Shown piece by piece: positions 44,581 through 63,910 of a DNA stretch of 64,000 nt. Each line of letters opens with the position of its first letter. Position 1 is the first letter of the stretch. The notes under the pieces were generated by a model, which was not told the origin of the DNA, made no database searches, and was given only the letters and a program-made list of their open reading frames with translations. The translations under genes were made by a program, and so were the position numbers. This DNA is from a bacterium (GTDB lineage Bacteria; Electryoneota; Electryoneia; Electryoneales; Electryoneaceae), in assembly GCA_963675295.2 (NCBI GenBank), contig CAXXKJ010000002.1:3840001-3904000 (forward strand). The letters are read 5' to 3'.

Positions 44581-44811
44581 GCGGAGTTTTCAGGCTGATT
44601 TTGACGTCAACAAGAAGTGTGGATCATCGTGCGAACTGCCCGCTGATCCGGAAAATCCGAAGAAGTTCCTAGTGTTTCGGGGTTTGCTGGTGAGGCGCAA
44701 GACCGGGCCTCGGATGCATCTTGCATCTTGATCCTGAGCGCTGAGGGTGTTAACCTTCGGAATCATTCATACATTTGTACCGACACAGTACATGTCTGGA
44801 AGGAAATCGAG

Positions 44812-46299
44812 ATGAAGAGGGGTCTCCGTACGGTGCGCGGTTGGAACGGGCCTTTGGCGGCGCTGATGCTGGTCATGTTCCTGCTGATGCTCACGCTGCC
44901 GGCGGCATGGGCTCAAGGCAGCTCGAAAATGGTGTACCTCCGGGGACAGGTTCGTGACCCCGGCGAGCACCCGATCTCCCAGAACCCGACGCTCTACCAA
45001 CTGCTCATCAACCACTCGGGCTTGACGGATGACAGGTTCCGCGAAGAGGTGTACGAATCTCGCGGGGAAGTTGTCCGCACGACAGAGGGTGACGAAGGGC
45101 CGGAGATCATCTCTTTCAGTGTGATCGACGTGTTGAACCAGGAACCGGGCAGCAACATCCCGTTGCAGCCGCAGGACATGGTTCGCATTTACAAGAAAGA
45201 GGTGACGAAGGCTTTTGAGAACTACGTCTGGATCACCGGGTATGTGAAATACCCCGGCCGGTACGAAATGACGCGCGACATGTCGCTCGCTGACCTGCTG
45301 CTGCGGGCTGGTGGGTTCGCGCCGGAAGCGTACATGCTGGACGCCGAGGTGAGCCGTGTCGAGTTGCACGGGATTCCGGGCGATACGTTGAACCGGACGT
45401 TTGACGTTCAGATGCTGCACACGTACAACGTGGTGCAGAACCCGGAAGACGTGCTTTCGTTGATCTACCAGGGCGCGACTCCGGCATCGAACTTCAAGAT
45501 GCAGGCGTACGACCAGGTTCATGTCCGTCGCAGTCCGGATATCACGTTGCCGAACAACGTCGTGATCGAGGGCCAGGTGCTGTACCCGGGGACGTACACG
45601 CTGGAACGGCGTGACGAAACTCTGAGCGAGATCATTGACCGTGCGGGTGGGTTGACATCCGATGCTTACATGGCCGGTGGGCAGTTGCTGCGTGCCGCGC
45701 CTGATGAAGGGCTCGACCTGACCATCGAGGAATTGCGCAAGGAAGTGAAGAACGCGCGCGAGGAGATGGAAATCCGTGAGCGTGCGGTGCGTACCATGTC
45801 CGGTGGCGGTGTTACCGGCAACACGCAGGCGCAGGGTGGCTTCCCGTTGCTGAACAACAGCCGTCTGGGTGATGCGACCGCCGAGATCCTCGAATCGTAC
45901 GAGTTCGCGATCCGCCGTTACCAGGACGCCAAGGAGAACTACGAAGCGGCGATGGCGTTGAAGCGTGGCATGAAGCGCATCAACGTCGACTTCTACGCCC
46001 TGCTGCAGAAGGGTGACATGAAGCAGGACGTCGTGCTGATGGAAGGCGACAAGATCATCATCCCGAAGGCACCGGGCACAGTCACCGTGCTGGGCCAGGT
46101 GAACAACCCGGGTATCTACGATCACGCCCCCGGCAAGACGATGGAATACTACATCATGATCGCCGGTGGAAAAACCGACATCGCGGGCGATGCGGTGCTG
46201 ACGCAACCGTCCGGCTACAGCTACTCGCTCGACTTCCTCAGCAACCCGAATGTGCAGGAAGGCGCGGTGGTTCGTGTGCTGCGTGATCGGCCGAACTGA
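44812..46299 (+). CDS. SLBB-repeat polysaccharide export protein (Wza/KpsD-like)
   Basis: Signal peptide and repeated GxVxxPGxY...AGG motifs; AAGGA RBS. Confidence 0.85.
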   Translation: MKRGLRTVRGWNGPLAALMLVMFLLMLTLPAAWAQGSSKMVYLRGQVRDPGEHPISQNPTLYQLLINHSGLTDDRFREEVYESRGEVVRTTEGDEGPEIISFSVIDVLNQEPGSNIPLQPQDMVRIYKKEVTKAFENYVWITGYVKYPGRYEMTRDMSLADLLLRAGGFAPEAYMLDAEVSRVELHGIPGDTLNRTFDVQMLHTYNVVQNPEDVLSLIYQGATPASNFKMQAYDQVHVRRSPDITLPNNVVIEGQVLYPGTYTLERRDETLSEIIDRAGGLTSDAYMAGGQLLRAAPDEGLDLTIEELRKEVKNAREEMEIRERAVRTMSGGGVTGNTQAQGGFPLLNNSRLGDATAEILESYEFAIRRYQDAKENYEAAMALKRGMKRINVDFYALLQKGDMKQDVVLMEGDKIIIPKAPGTVTVLGQVNNPGIYDHAPGKTMEYYIMIAGGKTDIAGDAVLTQPSGYSYSLDFLSNPNVQEGAVVRVLRDRPN

Positions 46300-46324: not shown

Positions 46325-46351
46325 AAGCCCCGGAAAATTCCGGGGCTTTTT
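46325..46351 (+). terminator. intrinsic (possibly bidirectional) terminator
   Basis: aaagccccggaa-aa-ttccggggcttttt. Confidence 0.8.
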
Positions 46352-46416
46352 CATGGCGTGTGACGGTTCAAGTGCGGACAGCGTTTTTCTTGTTATGCTG
46401 CATTTCAAGTGCGGAC

Positions 46417-46444
46417 AATCCCGACCAGCAAGCTGGTCGGGGCA
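46417..46444 (+). repeat. palindromic repeat family D
   Basis: aatcccgaccagcaagctggtcggggca, identical to 56496..56523. Confidence 0.88.
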
Positions 46445-46580
46445 CACGCGAACAGGGGTCATCCGTCATCCCCGTTCCGCGGCAACGAAGCTTCCGCGGG
46501 CATCGTCCCGGCTCCCTCCGCAGAAGCGGTTTCTGCCTCGCGGGCACCATGTGACGGCCACGATCAACCGTGGCACGTGC

Positions 46581-47630
46581 CTACTCCTCCAACCGCGCCT
46601 TGAGCGTGTCGATGGTCGGGATTGGGGATGGGTCCACCCCCTGCGCCAACGCCAGCCAGTAGCTCAGCCAGTCGCCGATCACGGTCAGCTCCATCATCCG
46701 CGCGAGGGTACTCTGCGTGCGTGGCGTAATGGTCTGCGCGGTCCACCCGGCGGCGCGCGCGAGCTCAGCGGTAAGCGGGATGCGTTTGCGGACATCAGCG
46801 GGTGCGTCCGGATCGTCCAGCAGGATCACGTCGTACCACTGCCCCCACTCCCCGCCTTCGACGTACGGCACCACCTCGTTGTGGTTCATCTCCGGCATCA
46901 CGCCCCATTGCGCCGCACGTTTGGCGTTCTCGTTGATCTGCGCCGCCCAGCGACGTGCGACGGGGACAAGCGTCCCGCTGCCGTAAATCATAGGGTGCTT
47001 CTTCAACGTCTCGGTGAGGAAGCCGTACACCGGGTGGTCGATCCCCTCCGGCGCAACGGACAGCGTGTCGGTCAGTTCGTTGATGACCTGCAGCGTTTCC
47101 TTGTACGCTTCGTCCGTGATCGTAACCCAGCCATGCTGCTGGAACGCACCCAGCGCGGTCGAGAACGCTTCGCCGAGAGCCGCGCGTGGCATGCGGCCAC
47201 CATGCACGGTCCATGTCTCAAAGCCGATCTCCTTCGCCATCGCCGCCAGTTTGCCGCCGGAGGTGAGGGCGTAGAGGGTGCAACCGCGGTCGATTGCTTC
47301 CTGTGCGGTGGCAAGGGTTTCCGCGGTGTTGCCGGAATAGCTGGCGAGGATGACAGCGGTGCCGGAGCCTGCCCATTTCGGCAACGGGCCGCCGCGATGA
47401 ACGGTCAACGGGAACGGCGCGGAGTCGCTGAGCAATCCCGCGAGGAAGTCGCCGCCGATGGCGCTGCCGCCCATGCCGGCCCAGATGACGGCGGATGGAA
47501 CGGGTGCGTCCGGGTAAGCTTTCGCCGCTTCCTGTCCCTGCGCCCAGCCGGTGCGGACCTGATCGGGCCAGGAGAGGATGTCGGCGTGCATATTTCGAGC
47601 ATCCACATCCCGTTTCTCGCTGAACTCCAT
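46581..47630 (-). CDS. bifunctional phosphoglucose/phosphomannose isomerase (PGI/PMI)
   Basis: GMGGSAIGGD, SYSGNTAET, TSGGKL, PRAAL, QINENAK, PEMNHNE, GVDPSP; GGAGG RBS. Confidence 0.92.
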   Translation of the reverse strand: MEFSEKRDVDARNMHADILSWPDQVRTGWAQGQEAAKAYPDAPVPSAVIWAGMGGSAIGGDFLAGLLSDSAPFPLTVHRGGPLPKWAGSGTAVILASYSGNTAETLATAQEAIDRGCTLYALTSGGKLAAMAKEIGFETWTVHGGRMPRAALGEAFSTALGAFQQHGWVTITDEAYKETLQVINELTDTLSVAPEGIDHPVYGFLTETLKKHPMIYGSGTLVPVARRWAAQINENAKRAAQWGVMPEMNHNEVVPYVEGGEWGQWYDVILLDDPDAPADVRKRIPLTAELARAAGWTAQTITPRTQSTLARMMELTVIGDWLSYWLALAQGVDPSPIPTIDTLKARLEE

Positions 47631-48268
47631 CCTTCCTCCGAGATTTGTATGACAATTGTGTGTCTCTTGCACTCATCTTCCGCGCTGCAACGGATTCCTG
47701 GTTTTCATCCAGGCTCGTTCCAGCGGAGTGGTAAGCTACGGAAATCGTGTACGCCAAGGTGCGGCAAACTCAGTCCTCTCACAGTCTCTCAGCGATTCCG
47801 ATTTGATGCCGAGTTGACCGGTCTGTGCCGTATGCGTATGTTTGCAAGCCCTAACTTTGATCGATACGTGAGAATCAGCCTGCGAGAGGGTGGAATTGAA
47901 ACGCTCGTTTAAAACTCGCGATTGAAAGCGTTTCCGGCGGGTTGTAGGTCCGTCAACGAGAAGTAGCGGGTCTGTTGAAAACGGGGTCAGCGAAAAGCAG
48001 CGTCTTGTCCGGTGCTGCCGGATTCGTAACCCGTTGATAATCAAGTGTGAATTCGGAGCCAATGCGAGCTTGATGCGACCTGCGTCACAGTACTCCGACC
48101 TTTTGATTATCACTTTCGCAGCCGTGCATCTTACGGTTGAAACATATTGATTTCAGTCAGTCTGCGGCTTTGGCTGGATGTGGAGAAATGACACATCGAT
48201 CCCGTGCAGATGCGGACAATTTTCGATACTTCCCGGGTGGATGACCCGGTCAGCAAAGGATTGCTTAC

Positions 48269-51200
48269 ATGTCGTTGAATCGGTTTGAACGGATCACTTT
48301 GAGCCCTCTCGGTTTGCGTGAGCCTGGTGTCGCGATCTCCGCGGCGAAGGCTGGATTCACCGGTTTGCTGGACGCCGAGTTCTGCGTTGACGCTGATCGT
48401 GCGCGTGTGTCGCTGGAGATGTTGCTGAAGCGCACGGCGAACGCCACCGGTCGCATCGGGCTCCGTCTGCATGCGGATCAGGTGAAGCCGTTGCAGCCGC
48501 TGCTTGAGATGCTTGCCGATCAGGATCACATCGTGCTGCTGGCTGGCGTGTCCGCGAAGAATCACGCCGACGTGTTAAAAGCGCTACCGAAGGCTGACCA
48601 ACGCTCGATCTGGCTGGAAATTCTCGATTCTCAGGTCGCGACGGAGCTGCTGAAGCAGAAACAGCAGCCGGAAGCGTGGGTGATGAAGGGCCATGAGGGC
48701 GCGGGCTGGGTTGGTGACGACACGACGTACATCCTGCTGCAGAAGCTGGCGAAGTTGGAGAAGACGCCGCCGGTGTATGTCCAAGGCGGTCTGGGTGTGC
48801 ATGCCGCTGCGGCGTGCAAGGTTGCCGGCGCGGACGGGATCGTGCTCGACGACCAGTTGTTGCTGATGCCGGAATCGCCGTTGCCGTTGTCCTGGAAGCA
48901 GTATTTCGAGGGGCTGAACGGCAAGGAAGCGGTTGCGTACGGTGAGCGTCTGCTCGCGCCGGTGCGGGTGTTCGCGCGTCCCGGGTTCCCGGTTAACGAC
49001 GACCTGATGGCGCAGGCGGACGCGCTTGAGGTTGAGAATGACCTGACGGAAAATGGTGTTGCCAAGTGGCGCGGGATTGCGTCCGAGCGGATCGGCTGGG
49101 GCGAACCGGGCGTGCTCGGCTGGCCGGTCGGGCAGGGCATCGGGTTCGCTGCACGCTACCGTGACAAATACAAAAGCGTCGCCAAGCTGTTGCGTGTGAT
49201 CGGCAACGAGATCGACGACCACATTCGTGCGGCGAAAGAGCAGCAGACGATGGCGCCGGACTCGCCGTTGGCGAAGCGGCACCGGACGAAATATCCGTTG
49301 GTTCAGGGCCCGATGAGCCGTGTCAGCGACCGGGCGGAGATGTCGGATGTGATCAGCCGGGAAGGTGCATTGCCGACGCATGCCCTCGGCACGATGCCGC
49401 CGCAGGTTGTCGCTGATTTGCTGAAGAAGAGTGTCGAGCTGCACGGCGACCGGTCGTGGGGTGTTGGCTTCATCGGCTTTTTACCGCAGGAGCTGTACGA
49501 CCAGCAGTTGGCAGAGGTAATCAAGGTCAAGCCGCCGTTCGCGATTATCGCCGGCGGACGTCCCGACCAGGCGAACAAGCTGGAAGAGCACGGGATTTCG
49601 ACGTACATCCATGCGCCGACGCCTGAACTGTTGAAGATGTACTACGAGTCGGGCGCGCGGAAATTCATCTTCGAGGGGCGGGAGTGCGGCGGCCACATCG
49701 GGCCGTTGTGCAGCTTCCCGTTGTGGGAATCGGTGATTGACGCATTCCTCGAGATGGTGCCAAAGGGCAAGGAAGCAGACGTCCAGGTGTTGTTCGCCGG
49801 TGGTGTCAGTGACCGGCTGTCCTCCGCGATGGTCAGCGCGATGGCGTCGCCGCTGGTCGCGCGTGGGATGAATGTCGGCTGCCTCGTCGGTACCGCCTAC
49901 CTGTTCGCAAAGGAATCGGTGGACACAGGGACAATCACGAAGCTGTACCAGGACACGGCGATCAAGTGCGACCGGACGGTGAACATGGAAGTCGGTCCGG
50001 GTCACGCCAACCGTGCCTGCGACACCCCGCTCGCCAGTGAGTTCAATGCGACCCGCCGCCAGATGCTGAAAGACAAGCGTCCCGGCGCGGAAATCCGTGA
50101 AGAGTTGGACCGGTTCACGCTCGGAAGGCTCGCGATTGCGACCAAGGGCCAGCATTTCAGCGCCGAAGGCATCCGTGACGTCGACGACAAGGAGCAGTAC
50201 CAGACCGGCTTTTACATGATCGGGCAGGTGTGCACGATGCGTGACCGTGCGACGACGGTCCAGGAGCTGCACACCGAAATCTGTGATGGCGCGGTTGAAC
50301 AGCTCGACTCGTTCGTGTTGCCGGAACCGGTCAAAGTGCAGGCTGAACCAAACCCGTGCGACATCGCCATTGTTGGCATTGCCTCGACCATGCCGCAGGC
50401 GAAAACGATGGACGAGTTCTGGGAAAATGTGCTGACGCACAAAGATGTGATTGAGGAGATCCCGAAGCACCGTTGGGACCCGGAGATCTACTACGACCAG
50501 GACCGCACCGCGCGTGACCGCAGCTACTCGAAGTGGGGCGGATTTGTCCCGGAAATGGCGTTCAACCCGGTGGCGTACGGCATCGCGCCGATCTCGATGA
50601 GCAGCATCGAACCGATGCAGGTCATGTCGTTGGAGATGGCGAAGAAGGCGTTGGAAGACGCCGGATATGGCGATGGCAGTTACCCGCGTGAACGCACCGG
50701 TGTAATCCTTGGTGCGGCGGGATCGACGGGCGACTTTGGCCTGATGCTGACGGCTCGCACGACGATGGAGCGTTTCGTTCCCTATATCCCGGAGGATACG
50801 TGGGAACGGATGCCGGAGTGGACGGAGGAAGCGTTCGCTGGTGGATTGTACAACGTGACCGCCGGCCGGATTGCCAACCGACTCAATATGAGCGGGATCA
50901 ACTTCACGGTTGATTCGGCGTGTGCGTCCTCGTTGACCTCGGTCGCGATGGCGATCTCCGAACTGGAATTGGGCAACGCCGACATGATGATCACCGGCGG
51001 TGTTGACCTGCAGCAGCATATCGGCAGTTACATCAGCTTTGCGAAGACCCATGCCCTCTCGCCCACCGGCAAGAGCCGCTCGTTCGACAAGAACGCGGAC
51101 GGGATTGTGCTGGCGGAAGGTGTGACGGTGCTGGTGCTGAAGCGTCTGGCGGACGCTGAGCGCGACGGCGACCACATTTACGCCAAGATCAAGAGCTGGG

Positions 51201-54200
51201 GATCGTCCAGTGATGGCCGCGCGAAGTCAATGACCGCGCCGTTCCCGGCAGGGCAACTGCGCGCGTTGCAGCGGGCGTACGAGAAGGCTGGGATTACGCC
51301 GGATCAGGTGGGGATGATCGAGGCGCACGGGACGGGGACTGTCGCCGGTGATACCGCCGAGACGGAAACCGTGCTCTCCCTGTTGAAGGGAAACACGCCG
51401 CCCAAGTCGATCTCGCTGGGTTCGGTCAAGGCGCAGATCGGACACGCCAAGTCGGATGCCGGTGCGGCGGGGATTCTGCGTGCGGCGTTGTCGTTGTATC
51501 ACAAGGTGCTGCCACCGCATTGCCATATCGAGGATCCGATCGATCCGATCGCCGATCCGGAATCGCCGGTGTATGTGCTCAAGGACGGGCGGCCCTGGAT
51601 CAAGCATCCAGACCGGCCCCGGTACGCGGGTGTCAGCGCGTTCGGATTCGGCGGCACGAATTTCCACATGGTGCTGGAAGAGTATGTCGAGGGCGCGAAG
51701 AAAAATACCGCCGGTGCGAATTTCTGGCCGCAGGAATTGTTCGCCTGGCGTGCCGCGAACGACAAGGCGCTGCTGCGTTCGGTGAAGACGGTGCACAAAG
51801 CGTTGTCGGCGGGTGCCGAGCCGCGTTTGCGAGACCTCGCGTTTACGCTGGCGTTGCAGGCGGATGCCGCAGTTGGCAAGCCGGCGCTGTTGACCGTTGT
51901 CGCGAGCAGCCTCGACGAATTGAAGGGCACGCTGGAGAAGGTCATCCAGGAGCTGGACGGCGAGGAAAAATTCCAGCTCGGCCCGAACGTGCAGTTGGTG
52001 CTGGATGCGCCGAAGGATTCGCCGAAGATCGGGTTCCTCTTTCCTGGCCAGGGCTCGCAGTATGTGAACATGGGCCGTGAAGCGGCGATGTACCTGCACG
52101 AGGTGCGGGAAGCGGTGGAAGCCGCGGATGGGTTCACCCGTGACGCCTACCCGAAACTGCTGAGCCAGTTCATTTTCCCGCCGAGCGCGTTCACGAAGGA
52201 CGAGGAGAAGCAGCAGGTCGTCGAGCTGACGAACACGCATGTGACGCAGCCCGCGTTGGGTGCGTTGGCGACCGGTTACCATGATTTCGCGACACGGTTG
52301 GGCCTCAAGGCGGACGGTGTCGTCGGGCATTCGATCGGTGAGTATGTCGCGTTGCACGCCGCTGGTGTGCTGTCGCGCGAGCAGATGTTCCAGTTGATCG
52401 AAACTCGTGGCCACACAATGGCCGAAGCCGCGGCGGACAAGCCGGGCACGATGGCGGCGGTGAAGTTGGAACGCGAGAAGCTGCAGCCGTTGATCACCGA
52501 GTTTGAGGGCGTGGTGATCGCCAACCACAACGCGCCGGAACAGTCGGTGCTGAGTGGTCCGGTTGACGGCGTCAAGGCGGCGGTGAAGAAACTGACGGAC
52601 GACGGCATCACCGCGAAGCTGTTGACCGTGGCCGGTGCGTTCCACTCCAGCCTGTTCGAGCAGTCGCAGAAGCCGTTGGTCGAGGCGATTCAGGCGGCGG
52701 AAGTCAACGAACCGCTGATCCCGGTGTATTCGAACAAGAACGGGTCACCGTATCCGTCCGACCCGAACGCAATCAAGGAACAGCTTTCCGGCCATTTGTT
52801 GGGGCCGGTGGAATTTGTTTCGGCTATCAACACGATGCACGACGATGGCATCCGTGTGTTTGTCGAACTCGGACCGAAGAGTGTGCTGGGGTCGTTGACG
52901 AAGCAGATCCTCAAGGATGATCTCAGTGTCAGCACGGTCTCGTTTGACGCCAACGGCGCGGTGAAGGGCGTGTTGAAGGCGACGGGCCAGCTGCTTGCGG
53001 CTGGCGCGCATGTGAAGCTTTCGATGTTGCATGAGGGGCGCGACGTCAAGGCATTGAACCTCGGCAAGCTGCTGGAAACGAAACCGGCGGAGTTGCCGAA
53101 GACGGCGTGGCTGGTGTCGGGCGGCTGTTCACGTCCGCAGGGCCACCCGATGCACATCGTGGGCAAACTTCCCCCATTGGACAAAGAACTTGCAGATAAG
53201 AGAAGGAAGGAACTGATGGACGAGTTCAAACAGCAGGGCGCTCCGCAGGGAGTGCCGCCGCAGCAGCCGGGTCAGCCGCCGGTTGATCCGATGCAGGCGT
53301 ACCAGCAGAACATGGCGCGCTTCCAGCAGATGCAGCAGCAGTATGGCCCGCAGGGTCAGCCGCCGCAGCAGCCGGGGTATCCGCCGCAAGGCATGCCACA
53401 GCAGCCGGGCTACCCGCAGCAGGGTTACCCGCAGCAGCCGCAGGGTTATCCGCAGCCGGGTTATCCACCGCAGGGCATGCCGCAGCAGCCGGGTTACGGC
53501 CGTCCGCCGTACCCGCAGCAGGGTTATCCTCAGCCGGGGTATCCGCCGCAGCAGCCCGGGTATGGGCGTCCCCCGTATCCGCAGCAGCCGGGCTACCCGC
53601 CGCAGGGCATGCCGCCCCAGGGATACCCGCAACAGCAGCCGCAGGGGTATCCTCCCCAGCAGCAGCCTGGTTATCCGCCGCAGGGCATGCCGCAGCAGCC
53701 CCAGCAGCCACAGATACCACCGCAGCAGCAGGCTCCAGCCCAGGCTCCGGCTCAGCCGCAGCCCCAGGCCGCCGCACCGGCGCCCGCACCCGCCGTTGAA
53801 GCTCCAGCTGCCCCAGCTCCCGCTCCCGCTCCTGCTCCGGCTCCGGCCGCTGGTGGTGCGATGAGCAAGGACGATATCGCCGCGCAGTTGGTCGCGTTGG
53901 TCGCGGAACGGACAGGCTATCCAGAGGATATGCTCGACCTCAACGCCGACATGGAAGCGGATCTCGGCATCGACTCGATCAAGCGTGTCGAGGTGCTGGG
54001 TTCGTTGCAGAAGACGTTCCCGGAAGACCAGGCGGACTCGTTGCAAGCCGAACTTGAGGCGTTGACGCGTGTCAAGACGATGGCCGAGATGGTCGACATC
54101 CTGCAGGCGATGGGCCAGAAGGCCGGTGGTGCGGCTCCCGCACCTGCCGCCGCAGCACCAGCCCAACCCGCAGCCGCCCCGGCGGCAGCACCTGCTCCCG

Positions 54201-56185
54201 CTCCGGCTCCGGCACCCGCCGCAGGCGCACCTATGAGTAAGGACGACATCGCAGCGCAGTTGGTCGCGTTGGTTGCGGAACGGACGGGCTATCCCGAGGA
54301 TATGCTCGACCTGAACGCCGACATGGAAGCGGACCTCGGCATCGACTCGATCAAGCGTGTCGAGGTGCTGGGTTCGTTGCAGAAGACCTTCCCCGAGGAC
54401 AAGGCCGATTCATTGCAGGCTGAGCTTGAGGCGTTGACGCGTGTCAAGACGATGGCCGAGATGGTGGACATCCTCGAGAAGATGGGTCAGCAGGTTGGCG
54501 GAGACACGGTAAACCCTAAGATGGGAGGCGTGCAGCAGCCGCCGTCCAGCCCGGACACGCTCCAGGCCTCCCGGTCCAATGGCGGAGCGGCGGCCTCTGT
54601 CGCGGACGATAACGATTTCAGCGGTGTCGAACGGATCGGGCGGTACATCTTCGAACCGTTCGAGGAGGAACTGCCCCCGCGTGGTGAACTCCCGCAGGGG
54701 CTGATCCTCGTCACCGAAGATGCCGGCGGCATCGCGGCAAACACGATCAACTTCCTCGCGCAGGAAGGCGTGAAAACCGCGATGATCGAGCGAGCGACGC
54801 TGGTTGATCCGGCCCGTCTCGAGCAATTCATCACTGACCAGCGTGAGCAGCACGGTTCCATCAGCGGCGTCCTGCACCTGGCGACCCTCGGCACCGGCAA
54901 CTTGCCGGAAACGATGGATGAGCTGGCGCAGGTGTCGCAGGAGCATGTTTACAGCCTGTTCAAGATCCTGCAGATCGTTGAACTCGATCTGAAGGAGGCG
55001 GCGGACACCGGCGAAGCTCGTGTGCTGCTGGGTTCGACCATGGGCGGCTCGTTTGGTCGGCATGGCCAGTCGAAGGCCGTTCCGACAGCGGCGTCCGGCC
55101 TCGGCATTTTGAAGACGCTGGTCATCGAATGGCCGGGTGTGCGTGCCAAGGCGGTCGATTTTGACGACGCGCTCAGCCCGCCGGCGATTGCGAAGCAGTT
55201 GGTGGACGAGCTGCTCGCCGATGACGAACGGCAGGAAGTTGGGTATCCGGGTGGGACGCGGACCGCGTTCCGGCCGGTGGACCGTGCGATTGATCTCAAC
55301 AACGGCGCCGAACCGCTCAAGCTCGAGTCGGACTGGGTGGCAATTGTCACCGGTGGTGCGCGCGGTGTGACCGCGGAGTTGGCGTACGACCTCGCTCGCG
55401 CGGGGATGACGTTGATCCTCTGCGGACGCAGCCCGTTGCCGCAGCCGGAAGGTCCGGAAACGGCCAACCTGACCGAACTTGCCGACTTGCGCAAGCATTT
55501 CATGATGGCGGCGAAGGCGGCTGGCGAGAAGGTTCGCCCGGTCGACATCGAGAAGAAGGTCAACCGTCTGCTCGGTGCACGCGAAATGCTGCGCAACATC
55601 AAGCGGTTCCAGGATGCCGGCGCGACGGTGGAATACCTCAGTGTTGACGTGTCCGATCTTGACAAGTTCGGCGCGGCGCTTGACGGGGTGTATGAACGTC
55701 ACGGCCGCATCGACGCGTTGCTGCATGGTGCGGGTGTGATTGAGGACAAGCTGATCGCCGACAAGCCGATCGAGCAGTTCCACCGGGTGTTTGAGACCAA
55801 GGTCAAGAGCACGTGGATCCTGGCGAAGAAGCTGAAGCCGGAGCAGATGAAGCTGGCGGTGTTCTTCACCTCGATGGCCGGACGATTCGGCAACATGGGC
55901 CAGTCGGATTATGCGTCCGCGAACGAAGCGGTGAACCGGTTCGCGTGGATGCTGAACAACGGGTGGCCGAACGCCCGCATCATGTCGATCAACTGGGGTC
56001 CGTGGATCTCGGGCATGGTGACGGACGAGTTGATTGCAGCATTTGAAGCACGCGGTGTGATTCCGATTCCGCTCAAGGGTGGACGGCAGTTCTTCCTCGA
56101 CGAACTGACCCACGGCTCGAAGGATGAGGTGGAGTTGGTCGCGGGGTCCGGCCTGTGGTCGGCGGATGATCTGAACCGTGTGTGA
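48269..56185 (+). CDS. Pfa-like type I PKS/FAS subunit 1: ER'(degenerate)-ER(FabK/NMO-type)-KS-AT-low-complexity tract-ACP-ACP-KR
   Basis: [10 protein letters not shown] (FMN TIM-barrel reductase); KS DSACASS, EAHGTGT, IGHAK; AT GHSIG, AFHS; 2x [11 protein letters not shown]; [17 protein letters not shown]; AAAGGA RBS. Confidence 0.92.
53861..54480 (+). repeat. near-identical tandem ACP-coding duplication
   Basis: About 53861-54105 and 54233-54477 encode [10 protein letters not shown]...MAEMVDIL, differing at EDQ/EDK; other differences are synonymous. Confidence 0.9.
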
Positions 56186-56295
56186 CGGATGACGTTCGCC
56201 GGATCGCGCATGAGACGTGGCGGACGATGGTAACGAACGACAATGCGGAGAGGTCCGGTCCGTCACCGGCCCTCTCCTTCCTGTATTTTTTGAGC

Positions 56296-56560
56296 TACCA
56301 CGGACTGAAGTCCGTGGTAAGAACAACGAGCAGCTATAATTACCACGGACTTTAGTCCGTGGTTGGTCCGTGATACGCAGGATGTCACAGTGAACAAGTT
56401 GTCGTCCAGTGAAGGGTGAATTCCTGAGACGGATGTCATCCAGAACTTGGTGTCATCCTGAACGTGGTGAAGGATCTCGTAGTTCACTGGCGGAAAATCC
56501 CGACCAGCAAGCTGGTCGGGGCAGACTCAAATGATCATCCACGACATGAATGTCGTGGGC
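56296..56560. repeat. mosaic of repeat families B, C and D between the two PKS genes
   Basis: taccacggac..gtccgtggt at 56296 and 56341; tgtcatcctgaacgtggtgaaggatct at 56451; family D at 56496; ccacgacatgaatgtcgtgg at 56539. Confidence 0.8.
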
Positions 56561-56608
56561 ATGTTGTACACATCAGGACGATTCGTCCGGGCACAGTTGA
56601 AGGATACG

Positions 56609-59600
56609 ATGAGCTCAGTGAAACGCAACCCTGGCCAGCAGAACATCGCCATCGTGGGCATGGCGTCCGTCTTTCCGAAGGCGCATGACGTCCGTGAATA
56701 TTGGCAGAATCTCGTCGACAAGGTGGACGGGGTGACGGACGGCGTGCCGGAATGGACGCAGCACTATTACGATCCCGAGATGAAGGAAGTCGCCCGGATT
56801 TACACGAAGAAGGGCGGATTTGTCGATCGCGATCTTCCATTTGATCCGCTCGAGTTCGGCATCATGCCGAGCCAGGTTGACGGCACCACACCGGACCATT
56901 TCCTCGCGTTGAAAGCGTGCAAGGACGCGTTGATCGACGCCGGGTACTGGGACGGGATGAAGTCGTTCGACAAGACCCGTACCGGCGTCATTCTCGGCTA
57001 TGGTCCGAACGCCAACCGTGGCAACCTGCTCGCGTTCCAGCATGGCATGGTCGTCGATCAGACGATGGCGATTATCAAGAATCTGCTGCCGGACATGGAC
57101 GAACAGATGATCTATGACATTCGTCATGACATCATGGACGGCCTGCCGATGTTGCGTCCGGAAATCGTGCCCGGTTTTGTCGCGAACGTGCTCACCGGCC
57201 GGATCGCGAACCGTCTCGACCTGATGGGTCCGAACTACATCGTCGACGCGGCGTGTTCGGCGTCGTTCATCTCGCTGGATGCGTCGATCAAAGAACTGCG
57301 CAGCGGACGCAGCGACATGATCCTCGCCGGTGGTGTCAACATGTCGATGCCGCCGCAGATGATGATGGTCTTCTCGATTATTGAAGCGTTGACCCGTGAC
57401 ATCGTGCGCCCGTTCGACAAGCGGGCCTCCGGCGTGCTGCTCGGCGAGGGTATGGGCATCATGGTGCTGAAGCGGTTGGAAGACGCCGAGCGTGATGATG
57501 ACCGCATCTACGCCGTGATCAAGGGAATCTCGCTGGCGTCCGACGGCAAGTCCAAGGGCCTGCTCGCGCCGCGTTTTGAGGGCGAAGTGCTGGCGATGCA
57601 GCGAGCTTATGAGGAAACCGGCATCGACAAGCACACGATATCGTTGCTCGAAGCGCACGGTACCGGGATTCCACTCGGTGATGAGACCGAGGTCAAGTCG
57701 ATCAAGACGGTGTTCGGTGACCGTCCCGAAGACGGATTGCCGATTGGGCTTGGCGGCGTCAAGTCGATGCTCGGCCACTCGTTGATGGCGGCCGGTTCCG
57801 CGGGGATGATCAAAACGGTGCTCGGCCTGTATCACAAGTCGTTGCCGCCGACCTTGTGCGACGAAGTCAGCCCGGCGCTTGAGCTGGAAACGAGCCCGGT
57901 GTATGTGAACAACAAGATCCGTCCGTGGATCAACGGTCAGGATCATCCGCGCCGTGCCGGCGTAAACGCGTTCGGGTTCGGCGGGATCGACGGGCACTGC
58001 ATTGTGGAGGAGTACACCGGCCCCAGCGGCAAGGATCGTGTGAAGTTGCTGGACAAGGTGTGGCCGCATGAACTGCTGGTGTTCCACGGCCGTTCGCAGG
58101 ATGACGTCGTCGAGCAGGTGAACAACGTGATCGGTGTGATCCAGCACCCACGCAACTTCCTGCTGAAGGACATCGCCTATTCGTTGGTCGAGCACGCCAA
58201 GGGCCAGTACGGTCCGGTGCGTCTGGCGGTCTTGATCACGGACAACCGTGAGGACGCGGTCAAGCGTCTTAAGGACGCCATCGAAAAGATCAAATCGGGC
58301 AAGGCCGAACGGATGAAGGGCCGTGGCGGTATTTTCTTTGGCGACAAGGTCCGTGACGGCAAGATGGCGTTCATTTACCCCGGTCACGGCGCGCAGTATC
58401 CTGAGATGTTCGCCGACCTGTGCCGCTTCTTCCCGAAGGTGCGGGAGTGGTTCGATGTGATGGACAGGCTGTTCGTGAAGAACATGGGCATCCGTCCCAG
58501 CGACGCCCTGTACCCGAAGCCGACGGTGCTGACCGATGAAGAACGGGAAGCGCTGGCGAAGGAACTGTTCACCGGCGACTACAGCATCGCGATCACGAAC
58601 TACACCGCCGATGCGATGGATGAGTTGGTCCGTGACACGCTCGGCGTCAAGCCGGACGTGATGATCGGGCACAGTACGGGCGAATTGAACGCGGTGGGAT
58701 CGTCCGGCTATTTCAAGAAGCCGGGCAAGACTGAGCTCGATGAGCCGACGGAGCTGCTGGTTGATGTCTTCACCAGCTTCCGTGATGAACTGGGTGGCTA
58801 CCCGACCGGCGCGTTGCTCGCCGTCGGCGCGGCTGACCACAAGAAGGTGGAGAAAATCATCGCCGACTCGAAGGGCAAGCTGTCCTTCGTGCTCGACAAC
58901 TGCCCGAACCAGGTGCTGGTCTACGGCGCGGAAGAAGATGTGCTCAACGCCAAGCCGTTGTTCGAGAAGGCGGGCGGGATTTGCGAACGGATGCCGTTCG
59001 ACCGTGCCTTCCATACCCCGGAATTCAAGTTGGTCAGCGAGAAGCTGGCGAAGCGGTTCAAGACCGACTGGTTTGACAAGGGCCACACCAAGCTGTTCAG
59101 CGCGACCAAGGGTGATTACTACCCGGACGATCCGAAGAAGGTCCACCAGTGGGCGGCGGATCTGTGGTCGGAGCCGGTGATGTTCCGTGGCGCGATTGAG
59201 AAGCTGTACGAGGACGGTGTCCGCATCTTCGTCGAAGTCGGCGCGAATGCGAACCTGACAGCGTTTGTCAACGACACGCTGATGGGCAAGGACTACCTCG
59301 CGGTCGCGACGAACAACGCGCGCAAGGGCGACCTCGACCAGCTGAACACCATGCTCGCGCAGTTGTTCATCAACGGCCGCGTGCCGCGGTTCGAAGGCAT
59401 GTACGAGCACCGCGAGGTGACCCTCGTGCCGGTCAATCCGGCGGAGATCGAGCCGGAGAAGAAGCGTCCGACGAACCAGCGGCTGGTGCGTGATGTCGCC
59501 ACCATGCGACTCAGCGACAAGATGATGCAGCGTCTGAACGAGAAGTTCCCGCATCGTGGGTTGACCGGCGCAGGCGCAGCGAAGATCATCCCGGAAGCCG

Positions 59601-62600
59601 CTGAAGCGGCGAAGATACAAGATCAGGCAGCTCCGGAAGCGACTCCGGTTGCAAAGTCCGCCAATGGTCAGCCGGCCGCGGCTCCGCAGCCGCATGAGAT
59701 GGCTCCGCAGCAACCGCCAGCGTACGATCCGAGTGGCTACCCGCAGCAACAGCCGATGGTAGATCAGTGGGGCAACCCGTTGCCGCAGCAGCCGGGCTAT
59801 GACCCGTATGCGCAGCCGCAGCAGGCTCCGATGTATGATCCATATGGAAACGGTGGCTTTGATCCGTACACCGGGCAGCCGATCCCACAGCAGCCGTACC
59901 CGGTACAGCAGCAGTTCGACGCGTGGGGCAATCCAATCCCGCAGCCGGGATTTGATCCGTACGCTCCGCCCCCGCCGCCGTATGATCCGTACGCCGCGCA
60001 GATGGGCTATCCGCCCTATCCGCCGCAGCCGATGGTGGATCAATGGGGCAATCCATTGCCGCAGCAGCCGGGATTCGATCCGTACGCACAGCCACCGCAG
60101 CAGCAGTACGACGCCTGGGGCAACCCGATTCCGCAGGACCCGTACAACCCGCAACCGTGGGGACCGGATTTTTTCGTACCAGGCAGTCTGGGGGTTCCAC
60201 CACCTGACCCGTGGGGGTACCAGCCCCAGGCGCCGATGATGTTTGATGCGTATGGTAACCCGCTGCCAGCGGACCCGTACGGCATGATGCCGCCGTATGA
60301 TCCGTATGGCGCGCCGCCGTTTGACCCATACGCACCTCCTCCCCCGCCGGAGATGGGCATGATGCCGCCGTACGATCCGTACGCGCAGCCGATGATGCCG
60401 CCGCAGGGGTTCGATCCGAATGTGTCGCCGGCACCGATGGAGATGCAGGCCCCGCCTGCCCCGGTGATGGAACCGGCTCTGGAAACGGCACCTCCGCAGG
60501 CTGCCGTCGAAGCACCCGCTCCGCCGTCAGCACCGGAAGCCCAGGCTCCGGCCGCTCCCGCACCTGCCGTTCCGGCAAAAGCCGAACCGCAGGCGGATGT
60601 TGAGGCGTTGCGTGAACAGGCGCGTGCGGCGATGAACGCGCACGACATACCGTTCGGCAAGAAGCCGCCGGTATCGCAGGAGATGCTGGACGCGATGCTT
60701 TCCGACCCGTCCAACCCGGACGCGCCGGATCATCTGCTGAAGAAGATCGATCCGCAGGCGTCGTTGAGTGCGCCGAACTACCCGCGTCCGGCTTCGTCAG
60801 AGTTGCCGTTCGAGCAAGCGTACCCGATGCTTGGCAAGGTGGTCAGCAAGGATGAAAACCTGCTCGAATGTGAGCGGCACCTGAACGTCGAAACCGACCT
60901 CGTGCTCAAGTCGCATGCGTTCGGCGGACCGCCCAGCCGTCACCAGAAGCAGCTGCGTCCGATGGCGATTGTACCGTTCGTGATGAGCCTCGAGACGTGC
61001 GCCGAAGCGGCCACGTACCTGATGGACGGCACCAAGCACGTCAAGACGTTCAAGATGATCCGCGGCCACCGTTGGCTGGCGCTGACCGACGGCACGCTCG
61101 ACATCCTGATCAAGGCGAAGAAGCTGAAGGATCTTGAGGACGGCGACACGCTGGTCCGAGTCGAGATTTTCCAGTATCACAAGCACCGGGATGGCCGTGT
61201 CGAACCGCATCTGACGTTCGAAACGATGGCCATTGTCGGCGACAGGGAACACGATCCGGTCGCGCCGATGCCGTTCAAGGTGCCGAATCCGAAGTACTCG
61301 CATTTCACCACCGAGATGCTGTATAACGACGGCATCTTCTACAGCATGAATTATCCGGGCCGGTTCCACGGGCGTCACTTCCGTGCGATCCGGAACATCC
61401 GTCACGTCAGTCCGCACACGATCGAAGTCGATATCGAGGTACCGGACTGGGATGATTTGTTCGCAAACATCCAGGACCCGCAATTCCAGACGGACATTTT
61501 CGTGATGGACGCGGCGGTGTTGCAGGTAGGATTCTACTACACCGAAGTGTACGGGATGGACGCAAACCTCTTCCCGTTCATGATCAAGGAAGCGAGGTTC
61601 TTCGGCGGTCCGCCGCCGAAGGGCCGGAAGCTGATCGGGCGCGCGGTGATGCGTTTGACCGGAATCGGTGACATTGAGCTGGACAGCAACCCGTATTTCA
61701 ACTTCCAGGACAAAGATGGGAATGTCATCTACCAGATGGACGACCATTCGCTGGAAGGCTTCCACTTCCCGCCGGAATACTACAAGGCGGTGATGGTACC
61801 GAACATGGGCTGTCTTGAAGGCACAGTGGACATTATCGACGCCGAAACCGGGCACGTTTACACCCACATCGAAGGCTGGCAGAACAGGTACTTCGACATG
61901 CCGGTGCGGTTTGACACGGTGACGTTGTTCATGCACGACTTCACCCTGTCGGAACCGTGGCTGACGGAGAAGACCGGCCTGCGGATGCGGATCAACGAGC
62001 CGTTCGAGGAAGGCCTGCTCGAGGAATCATGGGGTGTCTGGGGCAGCAAGCTGGCGCACACGACGTTGACTGAGGCGGAGAAGAAACAGTATTACAGCTT
62101 CCCGGAAGGCAACCCGCGCCGTCAAGACTGGCTGATGGGCCGGATCGCGGCGAAGGAGCTGTTGATCGACTGGATCATGAAGGAGACGATCGAAGATCGG
62201 TACAACCCGATCGACATCGAGATCCGGATTGATGAGTACGGAAAGCCGTACGGTGTCTGCACTCCGTTGCCGGAGCTGAAGCTGCCGGACTTCTCGCTGT
62301 CGCATTCGAAGCGATACGCGGTGACGGTTGCCGCGAAGGATCTGGACACCGCCATCGGTATCGATTACGAGTGGCTGGACAGTTTCAACTACGACGACGT
62401 GCTCGCCGGCGGTTTCGCGAAGGAGACGATGGACGAGGTGCGTGCGTTACCGGAAGATCAGCGCACGCGTGCTACCGCCGCGCTCTGGTGCAGCAAAGAA
62501 GCGGTCGCCAAGGCGCTCGGCAGCGGGATGAACTACGAGCCGCGCGAATGGGCGATTGACTCGTACGATCTGACCGCCGGAACGGCGTCCGTGCGCTACC

Positions 62601-63910
62601 GGGACAAGTCGTACGGCACGCGTTTCTGGTTCACCGAAGCCGGTGAAGTGGTTGCGGTCTGCGAACTCAGTGGCCGGACGGTTGCGCGTGAATCCGACGA
62701 CAAGGAGGGTGATTCTCAAGCGCTGACAACCGCGCCATCTGAGCACCACTCCGCCCCATCCGCTGAGCAGTCGCCTGACAGCAACGGTTCATCTGCTCCG
62801 GCCGTCACGGAAGACAGCGCCGCTGTCCAGGATGATGGCATCGACTGGGATGATCCGGATCGTGAACCGACCGAACTGGAAGAACAGCTGATCGAGTTGT
62901 GGGAAGAGCTGCTCGATATCGACGACGTCGGGCTGCACGATGACTTCTTCGAACTCGGCGGTGAGTCAGTGCTGGCGGTACGGCTGATCGGACGCGTCGA
63001 GAAGCTGGTCGGGCGTTCGATTCCAGTGGCGAATTTCCTCAAGACGCGTACCGTCGCACAGATGGCGAAGATCCTCTCGGATGAGGATTGGGCGCCGGAC
63101 TGGTCGTCGCTAGTGCCGTTGCGCGCGACCGGCGAACGGCTGCCGTTGTTCTTCACGCATCCGGTCGGCGGGAACGTGCTCAAGTACCGTGAGCTGATCT
63201 CGTTCATTCCCGAGGAGCAGCCGCTGTATGCGTTGCAAGCGCGCGGTCTGGACGGTGAGGAAGAACCGTTCGACAACGTGCCCGAGATGGCGGAGTATTA
63301 CCTCAAGGGCATCCGTGCCGCGCAGGAAGAAGGACCGTACCTGCTGGCCGGTTTTTCCGGTGGTGGGGTGATCTCGTGGGAGATGGCCTTCCAGCTCGAA
63401 CAGGCCGGTGAAGAGGTCGCGATGCTGGCGTTGTTCGACACGTTTGGTCCAGGGTACTACACGTTCGAGATGGGCGGCAGCCGTCTGCCGCATCAGCTGG
63501 AGACGTTCCTCTGGCGGATCGAACTGCACCTGGAGACGATGGCAACGCTCAGCATGCCGCAGAAGATCGATTACATCAGGCGCAAGCTGAAGCACGGCAA
63601 CCGCAAGGGTCGTGGCGGCTCCGGCGGCACCATTCGCAAGGTCGAAGACATGACCTACGAGGCGGTGCTGAGTTACAAGCCGAAGAAGCTGGAGCATGTA
63701 CCGGTGCACCTGTTCCGTGCCAGCCATCAGCCGAAACAGTCCACCGGCGACGAGCTGCTGAACTGGGGACCGTATGTCGGGAAGGGCAACCTGTCGGTGC
63801 ACCAGGTACACGGCACTCACGGGCACCTGGTCGAACAGCCGCATGTGGACGGTTTGGCGAAGATCCTGAACGAAGTGCTCGACGGGACACACGCCCGGAT
63901 TGGCGGATAG
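56609..63910 (+). CDS. type I PKS subunit 2: KS-AT-low-complexity tract-DH-PPTase-carrier protein-thioesterase
   Basis: KS DAACSAS, EAHGTG, LGHSL; AT GHSTG, AFHT; DH SHAFGG...VP, FHG, MDAAVLQ; PPTase GRIAAKE, GKP, SLSHS, IGIDYE, WCSKEAVAKA; DDFFELGGES; TE GFSGG, GTHG; ATG 56609 after AAGGA. Confidence 0.92.
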   Translation: MSSVKRNPGQQNIAIVGMASVFPKAHDVREYWQNLVDKVDGVTDGVPEWTQHYYDPEMKEVARIYTKKGGFVDRDLPFDPLEFGIMPSQVDGTTPDHFLALKACKDALIDAGYWDGMKSFDKTRTGVILGYGPNANRGNLLAFQHGMVVDQTMAIIKNLLPDMDEQMIYDIRHDIMDGLPMLRPEIVPGFVANVLTGRIANRLDLMGPNYIVDAACSASFISLDASIKELRSGRSDMILAGGVNMSMPPQMMMVFSIIEALTRDIVRPFDKRASGVLLGEGMGIMVLKRLEDAERDDDRIYAVIKGISLASDGKSKGLLAPRFEGEVLAMQRAYEETGIDKHTISLLEAHGTGIPLGDETEVKSIKTVFGDRPEDGLPIGLGGVKSMLGHSLMAAGSAGMIKTVLGLYHKSLPPTLCDEVSPALELETSPVYVNNKIRPWINGQDHPRRAGVNAFGFGGIDGHCIVEEYTGPSGKDRVKLLDKVWPHELLVFHGRSQDDVVEQVNNVIGVIQHPRNFLLKDIAYSLVEHAKGQYGPVRLAVLITDNREDAVKRLKDAIEKIKSGKAERMKGRGGIFFGDKVRDGKMAFIYPGHGAQYPEMFADLCRFFPKVREWFDVMDRLFVKNMGIRPSDALYPKPTVLTDEEREALAKELFTGDYSIAITNYTADAMDELVRDTLGVKPDVMIGHSTGELNAVGSSGYFKKPGKTELDEPTELLVDVFTSFRDELGGYPTGALLAVGAADHKKVEKIIADSKGKLSFVLDNCPNQVLVYGAEEDVLNAKPLFEKAGGICERMPFDRAFHTPEFKLVSEKLAKRFKTDWFDKGHTKLFSATKGDYYPDDPKKVHQWAADLWSEPVMFRGAIEKLYEDGVRIFVEVGANANLTAFVNDTLMGKDYLAVATNNARKGDLDQLNTMLAQLFINGRVPRFEGMYEHREVTLVPVNPAEIEPEKKRPTNQRLVRDVATMRLSDKMMQRLNEKFPHRGLTGAGAAKIIPEAAEAAKIQDQAAPEATPVAKSANGQPAAAPQPHEMAPQQPPAYDPSGYPQQQPMVDQWGNPLPQQPGYDPYAQPQQAPMYDPYGNGGFDPYTGQPIPQQPYPVQQQFDAWGNPIPQPGFDPYAPPPPPYDPYAAQMGYPPYPPQPMVDQWGNPLPQQPGFDPYAQPPQQQYDAWGNPIPQDPYNPQPWGPDFFVPGSLGVPPPDPWGYQPQAPMMFDAYGNPLPADPYGMMPPYDPYGAPPFDPYAPPPPPEMGMMPPYDPYAQPMMPPQGFDPNVSPAPMEMQAPPAPVMEPALETAPPQAAVEAPAPPSAPEAQAPAAPAPAVPAKAEPQADVEALREQARAAMNAHDIPFGKKPPVSQEMLDAMLSDPSNPDAPDHLLKKIDPQASLSAPNYPRPASSELPFEQAYPMLGKVVSKDENLLECERHLNVETDLVLKSHAFGGPPSRHQKQLRPMAIVPFVMSLETCAEAATYLMDGTKHVKTFKMIRGHRWLALTDGTLDILIKAKKLKDLEDGDTLVRVEIFQYHKHRDGRVEPHLTFETMAIVGDREHDPVAPMPFKVPNPKYSHFTTEMLYNDGIFYSMNYPGRFHGRHFRAIRNIRHVSPHTIEVDIEVPDWDDLFANIQDPQFQTDIFVMDAAVLQVGFYYTEVYGMDANLFPFMIKEARFFGGPPPKGRKLIGRAVMRLTGIGDIELDSNPYFNFQDKDGNVIYQMDDHSLEGFHFPPEYYKAVMVPNMGCLEGTVDIIDAETGHVYTHIEGWQNRYFDMPVRFDTVTLFMHDFTLSEPWLTEKTGLRMRINEPFEEGLLEESWGVWGSKLAHTTLTEAEKKQYYSFPEGNPRRQDWLMGRIAAKELLIDWIMKETIEDRYNPIDIEIRIDEYGKPYGVCTPLPELKLPDFSLSHSKRYAVTVAAKDLDTAIGIDYEWLDSFNYDDVLAGGFAKETMDEVRALPEDQRTRATAALWCSKEAVAKALGSGMNYEPREWAIDSYDLTAGTASVRYRDKSYGTRFWFTEAGEVVAVCELSGRTVARESDDKEGDSQALTTAPSEHHSAPSAEQSPDSNGSSAPAVTEDSAAVQDDGIDWDDPDREPTELEEQLIELWEELLDIDDVGLHDDFFELGGESVLAVRLIGRVEKLVGRSIPVANFLKTRTVAQMAKILSDEDWAPDWSSLVPLRATGERLPLFFTHPVGGNVLKYRELISFIPEEQPLYALQARGLDGEEEPFDNVPEMAEYYLKGIRAAQEEGPYLLAGFSGGGVISWEMAFQLEQAGEEVAMLALFDTFGPGYYTFEMGGSRLPHQLETFLWRIELHLETMATLSMPQKIDYIRRKLKHGNRKGRGGSGGTIRKVEDMTYEAVLSYKPKKLEHVPVHLFRASHQPKQSTGDELLNWGPYVGKGNLSVHQVHGTHGHLVEQPHVDGLAKILNEVLDGTHARIGG

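Follow-up and report, generated by a model that had tools for sequence, protein, structure and literature searches.

The window considered here, a stretch of 64,000 nucleotides from a bacterium of the family Electryoneaceae (GCA_963675295.2, contig CAXXKJ010000002.1, positions 3,840,001 to 3,904,000), contains two consecutive genes on the forward strand, here called A and B, that encode a two-protein megasynthase (Table 1). Protein A carries, in order, two enoyl reductase-like barrels (ER' and ER), a ketosynthase (KS), an acyltransferase (AT), a Pro/Gln-rich linker, two acyl carrier proteins (ACPs) and a ketoreductase (KR). Protein B carries a second KS and AT, a Pro-rich linker, a dehydratase (DH), a phosphopantetheinyl transferase (PPTase), a peptidyl carrier protein (PCP) and a thioesterase (TE). 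The fused PCP-TE is a rare, clade-specific addition to a core class that is already known. A preliminary description of the window, made from its letters, had given coordinates for both open reading frames (ORFs), and these match our ORF calls exactly. Orthologue matches to gene B begin at about residue 21-27, so its true start may be Met27 (56609). The comparisons below draw on the source genome (G000), which is 92.8% complete, a scope that applies to every search of it, on 79 genomes of the phylum and 16 of the family, and on an orthologue set of the TE-fused form made up of five clusters.

Table 1. Features of the synthase locus and its immediate neighbours, in window positions (residue numbers refer to protein A or B; FMN, flavin mononucleotide; NMO, nitronate monooxygenase; NRPS, nonribosomal peptide synthetase; PKS, polyketide synthase; AF2, AlphaFold2)
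Feature	Position	Strand	Extent, key residues	Basis
Gene A	48269..56185	+	2638 aa	ORF and translation, Pfam, NCBIfam
ER', predicted N-terminal FabK-like TIM barrel	48269..49273	+	A 1-335	AF2 model, Foldseek
ER, FMN-type enoyl reductase barrel (FabK/NMO-like)	49274..50338	+	A 336-690	Pfam, NCBIfam, PDB
KS1	50360..51688	+	Cys885/His1020/His1059	Pfam, motifs
AT1, malonyl-type	52034..52936	+	Gln, GHSIG Ser1355, Arg, GAFHS	Pfam, motifs, AT alignment
Pro/Gln-rich low-complexity linker	53186..53848	+	A 1640-1860; 30% P, 27% Q	composition
Two near-identical ACPs	53861..54478	+	[10 protein letters not shown]; Ser1903, Ser2027	Pfam PP-binding, translation, motifs
Weak pseudo-KR, upstream of KR	~54700-55075	+	A 2146-2269	weak KR match
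KR catalytic subdomain	55343..56005	+	GGARGV, Tyr2548	Pfam KR 4.4e-35
Gene B	56531..63910	+	2459 aa	ORF and translation, Pfam, orthologue matches
KS2	56639..58015	+	Cys242/His376/His416	Pfam, motifs; motif kept in orthologue clusters covering the KS2 region
AT2	58370..59308	+	GHSTG Ser715, RAFHT	Pfam 8.5e-16, AT alignment
Pro-rich low-complexity linker	59618..60700	+	B 1030-1390	composition; 34-85% identity among orthologue clusters
DH, predicted PKS-type double hot-dog	60821..62020	+	His1462, Asp1660; ~45-aa insertion	homology, fold
Sfp-type PPTase	62021..62710	+	GIDYE 1943, WCSKEA 1986	Pfam ACPS, NCBIfam
NRPS-type PCP	62858..63100	+	GGES, Ser2146	Pfam, motifs, PDB matches
Alpha/beta-hydrolase TE	63143..63868	+	GFSGG Ser2276, GTHGH 2428-2432	Pfam Thioesterase 4.7e-21
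SLBB-domain export-type protein	44728..46299	+		Pfam SLBB; adjacent, co-inherited
PGI/PMI-type isomerase gene	46581..47672	-	divergent from gene A	72% identical to G003 orthologue

In protein A, Pfam matched an NMO/FabK-type ER (410-673), a KS (698-1087), an AT (1256-1556), two PP-binding domains and a KR (2359-2579), and the PfaA model of NCBIfam, TIGR02813, scored 1163.2 bits against a cut-off of 1010.1. ORFs this long with such scores are far beyond chance. Together with the DH of protein B, the KR and ER bear out the complete iterative reducing type I system with Pfa-like parts that had been proposed from the sequence, and Pfam and the motifs recovered the whole set of domains named for it (FMN-type ER, two PfaA-type ACPs, KR, PPTase, third carrier and TE). 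All catalytic motifs are intact and are kept in the five orthologue clusters, including the Cys-His-His of both KSs, as the preliminary description had read them.

Protein A appears, from the predicted fold of its first domain, to open with two tandem FabK-like barrels and not with one. Predicted folds were needed for this domain and for the DH of protein B because sequence searches gave no relevant match: Pfam and NCBIfam yielded none for A 1-335, and a PDB sequence search with A 1-690 matched the second barrel only. The AF2 model of A 1-335 is a TIM barrel (pLDDT 92.7) whose top Foldseek matches are FabK and nitronate monooxygenase (E ~1e-13), with PfaD structures at ranks 46-48. The region is conserved in 36 aligned homologues, in which a GHEGAGW sequence with a nearly invariant Trp stands at the position of ECGGH in the second barrel. 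The Trp thus occupies the place of a His that we take to be the catalytic His of FabK. The second barrel is FabK/NMO-like by three kinds of search (Pfam NMO, 8.4e-13; TIGR03151 FabK; best PDB match FabK 2z6i, 1.2e-13), and no PfaD-family model of NCBIfam matched it at E <= 0.001. The double barrel is a family trait: a search with A 1-700 returned 2720 matches, and all 120 homologues listed cover 91-100% of the query, all except the first being 43-50% identical to it.

Pfam matched in protein B a KS (37-442), an AT (614-926), an ACPS-type PPTase (1941-2043), a PP-binding domain (2118-2180) and a Thioesterase domain (2205-2446). A Pfam search and a motif scan found no second KS-like domain in this protein and, judged by its active-site residues, KS2 is not a chain-length factor. 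Searches of Pfam, NCBIfam and the PDB sequences left the DH segment (B ~1431-1830) without a match, also when the thresholds were relaxed. It is 29% identical (E 2e-54) to a type I PKS of Gloeobacter violaceus that carries the Pfam domain PS-DH, and two of its residues, His1462 and Asp1660, do not vary across the 36 sequences aligned (protein B and 35 homologues). The AF2 model of the segment is a double hot-dog (pLDDT 89, pTM 0.90), for which Foldseek ranks PKS dehydratases highest (PksJ DH1, CurF DH and others, E ~1e-13). Because of this modelled fold and of these matches, the DH is best described as a real dehydratase of the PKS type, not of the FabA type. The DH that had been claimed for the second gene is thereby confirmed by homology, invariant residues and predicted fold. 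As for the PPTase, the model PF01648 has two matches in the genome, the fused domain and a 154-aa ORF of AcpS size, so that the fused PPTase is the only one of the Sfp type found there.

The two proteins also share a feature outside their catalytic domains. Long Pro/Gln/Tyr-rich linkers in A (~220 aa) and B (~360 aa) consist partly of degenerate 33-84-nt repeats, with degenerate tandem repeats at 53350-53615 in A, and both linkers differ in length and sequence among orthologues. A TRF run did not report the 372-nt duplication that gave the two ACPs of gene A, which is seen at the protein level.

The two ATs call for separate treatment. Both were described at the outset as malonyl-type on the strength of their GHS and AFH motifs. 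The motifs are indeed present in AT1 and AT2, and AT1 is of the malonyl type. The label is doubtful for AT2, from which the Gln and Arg that mark malonyl-specific ATs are missing. In an alignment of the three ATs of the organism with four homologues of each kind (six and five picked, four and four pattern-matched), AT1 and its A-like counterparts have both the motif I Gln and the Arg that follows the active Ser. Neither residue occurs in AT2 or its B-like counterparts, which retain GHSTG and xAFH. According to a 2026 structural paper (PMC12895367), the Gln-Arg pair is required for malonyl specificity, and PfaB, which has no such pair, handles long chains. Since AT2 shares this lack with PfaB, it may by analogy be a long-chain acyl transferase.

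We then considered the end of protein B. The best solved relatives of B 2100-2459 are NRPS PCP-TE di-domains, namely 4zxh (Acinetobacter ABBFA_003403, E 2.3e-31) and EntF, and by its PDB matches the third carrier is an NRPS PCP. As in an NRPS termination module, a PCP with GGxS is followed by a type I TE with GxSxG. Unlike in EntF and 4zxh, no condensation (C) or adenylation domain lies upstream or elsewhere in protein B, and the condensation-domain model PF00668 has no match in the genome. The combination is rare. Among the 120 best matches to the PPTase-PCP-TE part, ACPS and Thioesterase occur together in five (P0003-P0007, 61-92% identical). The other 115 have no ACPS; they combine a carrier and a TE in proteins of the NRPS, PKS or hybrid type, for the most part termination modules of the order C-A-PCP-TE, and match with at most 49% identity and at most 68% query coverage. 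Full-length matches were found in five of the 79 phylum genomes, four from one genus (G000-G003) and one from another (G007), all within one family, and a search of genome contigs for related loci returned one near-identical locus only. The nearest ESM Atlas clusters, which serve as a lead only, are DH-ACP-TE ends of PKSs, none of them listed with the PPTase family.

Few parts of protein B are as well conserved as the PCP and TE, with 84-99% and 67-94% identity among the orthologue clusters, and the PPTase is less conserved than either. Ser2146, Ser2276 and the GTHGH sequence are retained in five of five clusters from two genera. Because the two domains are so well conserved and the orthologues have retained all catalytic motifs, the fusion appears to be under selection. 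A sister cluster may indicate where it came from. In another genus of the same family (G010), a split form lies on a 19.7-kb contig (L024, G010:C19:1-19694; notably 13807-15303 and 15335-19606) and comprises an ER-KS-AT protein, a separate KR, a KS-AT-DH-PPTase protein, a carrier-sulfotransferase protein and a C-A-PCP-TE NRPS module. Since this module carries a PCP-TE that is 42% identical to that of protein B, the comparison suggests that the PCP-TE of B stems from an NRPS module of this kind. The cluster itself resembles a hybrid of a lipid line and an NRPS line in which sulfation takes place on the carrier.

Apart from the PCP-TE, the proteins belong to a large and widespread family. A search with protein B gave 1060 matches. 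Proteins of about 1500-1850 aa with KS, AT, PS-DH and ACPS make up the greater part of the 120 listed and come from cyanobacteria (Gloeobacter, Fischerella), Acidobacteriota, Scalindua and others. A PDB search with the KS-AT regions of A and B gave generic PKS matches, which do not discriminate between Pfa and PKS. In Shulse and Allen (2011; PMC3098273), pfa-like clusters are typed A to T, with Gloeobacter violaceus as type O and the Azotobacter ars cluster as type P; in types M-P a PPTase lies close by and a PPTase motif is common to them all, and type P builds the C22-C26 acyl chains of phenolic lipids. The members named there for types M, N and O (Renibacterium and Frankia, Chitinophaga and Chryseobacterium, Gloeobacter and Dinoroseobacter) are uncharacterised 'secondary lipid synthases'. 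The Gloeobacter proteins are direct homologues of those described here, since they align over the KS-AT-DH-PPTase of B and the ER-KS-AT-ACP-KR of A. A 2026 survey (PMC13291983) describes fused pfaDA and pfaBC-PPTase operons in Aquimarina and Flavobacterium and likens them to an uncharacterised Renibacterium cluster; such Flavobacteriales examples are coupled there to large PKS-NRPS lines, of which just a PCP-TE is present in our locus. The core pair ER-KS-AT-ACP-KR plus KS-AT-DH-PPTase is thus a widespread class already in print, and for this reason the preliminary description went too far in calling the domain order unusual. Only the PCP-TE fusion is rare, as no listed homologue outside one small clade carries it.

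The closest system with a studied product is ArsA/ArsD, encoded by arsABCD of Azotobacter vinelandii. Both are two-protein iterative reducing synthases with a PPTase close by. As in that class, the first protein has the order ER-KS-AT-ACP(n)-KR (by Pfam, NCBIfam and fold) and the second is a KS-AT-DH-PPTase protein with an active-type Cys KS. In that class no release domain is integrated and the chain is handed to a partner, whereas a PCP-TE is fused to protein B. The Ars synthase has one ACP, against two here, and makes long saturated C22-C26 chains. According to a review, the ACP-bound chain passes straight from ArsA to a pair of type III PKSs, whose genes lie between arsA and arsD. The type III PKS model PF00195 has no match in the genome, and an Ars-like phenolic-lipid pathway was ruled out on this ground, as was a lipopeptide pathway for want of a condensation domain. 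The statement that no product of this arrangement had been characterised is thus valid for the TE-fused form, for which we found none in the literature that we searched, and not for the core class as a whole, of which the Azotobacter system is a member.

A second comparison concerns the enediyne PKS (PKSE), a single protein of the order KS-AT-ACP-KR-DH-PPTase, without an ER and with a separate hot-dog thioesterase. It resembles our pair in being an iterative type I system with a C-terminal PPTase fused behind a PKS-type DH. In contrast, the domains at our locus are spread over two proteins, which have two ER-like barrels, two KS-AT pairs and an alpha/beta-hydrolase TE behind a PCP.

Is the pair sufficient on its own? 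The preliminary description had proposed a self-contained system that activates, elongates and releases alone. A complete iterative reducing set, an own PPTase and a conserved TE agree with this proposal. Its sufficiency as two genes is doubtful, since a third KS-AT gene and the SLBB gene beside the pair occur in exactly the same five genomes as the TE-fused pair. The third KS-AT protein has no carrier domain (1070 aa; G000:C2:1436467-1439676, reverse strand; L015:10465-13677), lies 2.4 Mb away and has an intact Cys-His-His and a GHSLG motif; its orthologues were found in five of the 16 family genomes. A KS tree was built from 23 sequences, after four of the 18 picked homologues had been dropped for a mismatch to the active-site pattern and without named Pfa, Hgl or PKSE references. 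In it the KSs of the orphan and its orthologues group together (100/100), with KS1 of protein A as sister (97/95), inside the A-like clade, and KS2 of protein B falls in the other deep clade, that of the B-like sequences (100/100). By this sister position the orphan appears to be a lineage-specific duplicate of the KS-AT of A, and we regard it as a candidate third subunit. Its gene adjoins those of an EamA transporter and of a CpeT-like protein.

Altogether, genes A and B probably encode an iterative, fully reducing type I fatty acid or polyketide synthase of the ArsA/ArsD-like class, from which a long, mostly saturated chain would be released through the PCP-TE. From the domains we infer the following route. 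In protein A, AT1 would load malonyl units onto the two ACPs, KS1 would condense them, and the KR and the FabK-type ER would reduce the products. In protein B, KS2 would act as a second condensing enzyme, probably in later rounds of elongation by analogy with PfaC as described in PMC12895367, the PKS-type DH would dehydrate, and the Sfp-type PPTase would turn all three carriers into their holo forms. Two routes could bring the finished chain to the PCP, namely transfer by the PfaB-like AT2 and a final condensation by KS2 on malonyl-PCP, and the TE would then free it as an acid or pass it to an acceptor. The presence of KR, DH and ER, together with the lack of a FabA-type DH and of a chain-length factor, makes a long saturated acyl chain the most likely product. 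Because the Ars chain goes to type III PKSs and none was found here, the TE is a plausible substitute for them. Other candidates to take the chain, namely a type III PKS, a condensation domain and a sulfotransferase of the CurM type, were likewise not found in the genome.

Several points weigh against this proposal. The chain length is set by analogy with the C22-C26 chains of Ars. No tested precedent accounts for the delivery of an acyl chain to an NRPS-type PCP without a C domain. The TE could edit or transfer instead of hydrolysing. AT2 may simply load malonate, given that its GHSxG and AFH motifs are typical of malonyl transferases. The co-occurring third KS-AT may mean that two genes are not the whole machine. 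Absences from a genome of the completeness given above are not proof. Lastly, the domain order of ArsA and ArsD (ER-KS-AT-ACP-KR and KS-AT-DH-PPTase) enters the comparison as general background and not as a result of ours.

Of the megasynthases that lack a known product, the ArsA/ArsD-like secondary lipid synthases count with the most widely distributed, and studies of them are confined to the Azotobacter system. No member of the class should be easier to express in a foreign host than a variant that brings along domains for activation and release, and such a variant could for that reason reveal the chain that the class builds. It could also reveal the roles of the second KS, of an AT2 without Gln and Arg and of the two FabK-like barrels.

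An extension of the proposed lipid synthase concerns the use of its product. The synthase might make the lipid part of a surface glycoconjugate, that is a glycolipid, an anchor or an acyl decoration of a sulfated polysaccharide, with the SLBB protein as exporter and the TE possibly transferring the chain to a sugar. We hold this for possible, although on balance unlikely, and the neighbouring genes provide most of the arguments. In the genus of the source organism (g1: G000, G002 and G003, which share one layout) the pair lies inside a polysaccharide locus. Upstream, the forward strand carries genes for a kinase-like protein, an epimerase and a CapD-like dehydratase and then the SLBB gene, followed on the reverse strand by the PGI-type gene. 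This last gene is a conserved neighbour and probably belongs to the context only. An ORF on the other strand (46314-47912, +) was first taken for a conserved unknown and then rejected as a spurious antisense frame of the PGI-type gene; the same artefact occurs in G007. The SLBB gene is adjacent to the pair in both genera, and its full-length orthologues are found in five of the 16 family genomes, two others having partial matches at 44%. Because it is adjacent and co-inherited, we tentatively count the SLBB protein as a member of the system.

Downstream of the pair, on the reverse strand, the source genome has five sulfotransferase genes, a GT4 gene, Wzy, a beta-helix protein, Wzx, Wzc, Wza and Wzi, and the three genomes of the genus that were examined have five to six sulfotransferases there. 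This Wzx/Wzy-type polysaccharide locus, with its five carbohydrate-type sulfotransferase genes, lies just past the window (L003 1204-16950; G000:C2:3904204-3919950) and points to a sulfated surface polysaccharide. The second genus (G007) keeps the order epimerase-CapD-SLBB-PGI-A-B at 60-67% identity. In addition, the TE matches the Pks13 model over its whole length with 70 bits. The TE of Pks13 transfers its product to a sugar. On the other side, G007 has no Wzx/Wzy/sulfotransferase block beside the pair, the downstream block of the first genus is on the opposite strand, and the part that is conserved between the genera contains no glycosyltransferase. The G010 variant is joined to an NRPS and not to sugar genes, as far as its 19.7-kb contig extends. 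The five genomes stand for two genera and thus for about two independent observations, and for this reason the context gives just a weak hint of a link to a surface glycoconjugate. The conserved association with sugar-nucleotide and export genes provides a concrete hypothesis for a role of the lipid in the cell envelope.

One can speculate further. By capture of an NRPS PCP-TE and duplication of its KS-AT, an ArsAD-type synthase could have become a free-standing factory of very-long-chain lipids that primes itself and releases its own product, in which AT2 would shuttle the chain from ACP to PCP, the TE would pass it to a sugar-bearing acceptor, and a lipid-anchored, possibly sulfated polymer or glycolipid would exit through the SLBB protein. 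We regard this detailed scenario as rather improbable, more so than the general link to a glycoconjugate. If true, it would show that FCB-group bacteria have a new way to attach lipids to the glycans of their envelope.

Release through the PCP-TE, as we propose it, must also be weighed against the idea that this part is the leftover of a lost NRPS module, without a role in release or at most an editing TE, and that the chain leaves the ACPs elsewhere, as in Ars. The nearest PCP-TE relatives outside the clade are NRPS C-A-PCP-TE modules, among them that of G010, and the genome search turned up no partner with a C or A domain. Against this stands the conservation of the PCP and TE, which exceeds that of the PPTase, with both active Ser residues and GTHGH kept throughout the orthologue clusters, and we consider this explanation improbable.

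The sister cluster raises another possibility, namely a terminal alkene of the type made by CurM or olefin synthase (OLS), in which a neighbouring sulfotransferase (ST) would sulfate a beta-hydroxyacyl-PCP and the TE would hydrolyse and decarboxylate it to an olefin. The ST domain of the G010 carrier-ST protein matches in the PDB the ST of CurM (4gbm, E 3.6e-64) and that of an olefin synthase (4gox, E 5e-57), and the source genome has two sulfotransferase genes directly after gene B. However, both of these match carbohydrate or cytosolic types (3rnl and heparan sulfate 3-O-sulfotransferases), and a direct comparison of one of them with the ST domain of G010 showed no similarity. When the carrier-ST protein of G010 was searched against the whole genome, its carrier part alone had matches. 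Thus the ST of the CurM/OLS arrangement ACP-ST-TE, present in the G010 relative, was not found in the source genome. Nor does a CurM TE appear in the best 60 of 91 matches of the TE, whose best solved relatives are the NRPS PCP-TEs. On these three grounds, the TE relatives, the ST types and the genome search, CurM-like olefin release was rejected for this genome as very improbable.

Finally, a compact polyunsaturated fatty acid (PUFA) synthase is the least tenable of the alternatives: the locus shares with PfaABCDE a KS-malonyl-AT-tandem ACP-KR core with the [10 protein letters not shown] motif in its ACPs, an FMN-type ER, an Sfp-type PPTase and, in AT2 as in PfaB, the lack of Gln and Arg, and the PfaA model is the best NCBIfam match of all three KS-AT regions (A, B and the third gene), above its cut-off on A, yet there is no KS-chain-length factor pair (KS2 has Cys-His-His), the sole DH is by its model a PKS-type double hot-dog and not a FabA-type dehydratase/isomerase, the ER has no match to a PfaD-family model at the threshold given above, the ACPs are only two, and ER, PPTase and TE are fused.

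Other genes, most of them in the window, deserve mention. About 10 kb upstream of the synthase lies an AccC-type biotin carboxylase gene (36215-38206, reverse strand), in the same relative place as in G002 and G003; the ORF as called is ~155 aa longer at its N-terminus than its orthologues. An MBOAT-family membrane O-acyltransferase gene, with an unknown 390-aa ORF next to it, is found some 20 kb upstream of the synthase (25520-28168, reverse strand). A Por_Secre_tail, the sorting domain of type IX secretion, ends three proteins (window 28250-29779, reverse strand; window 38006-39760, forward strand; L015 14655-16661, reverse strand), and its presence at these C-termini places the organism in the FCB group.

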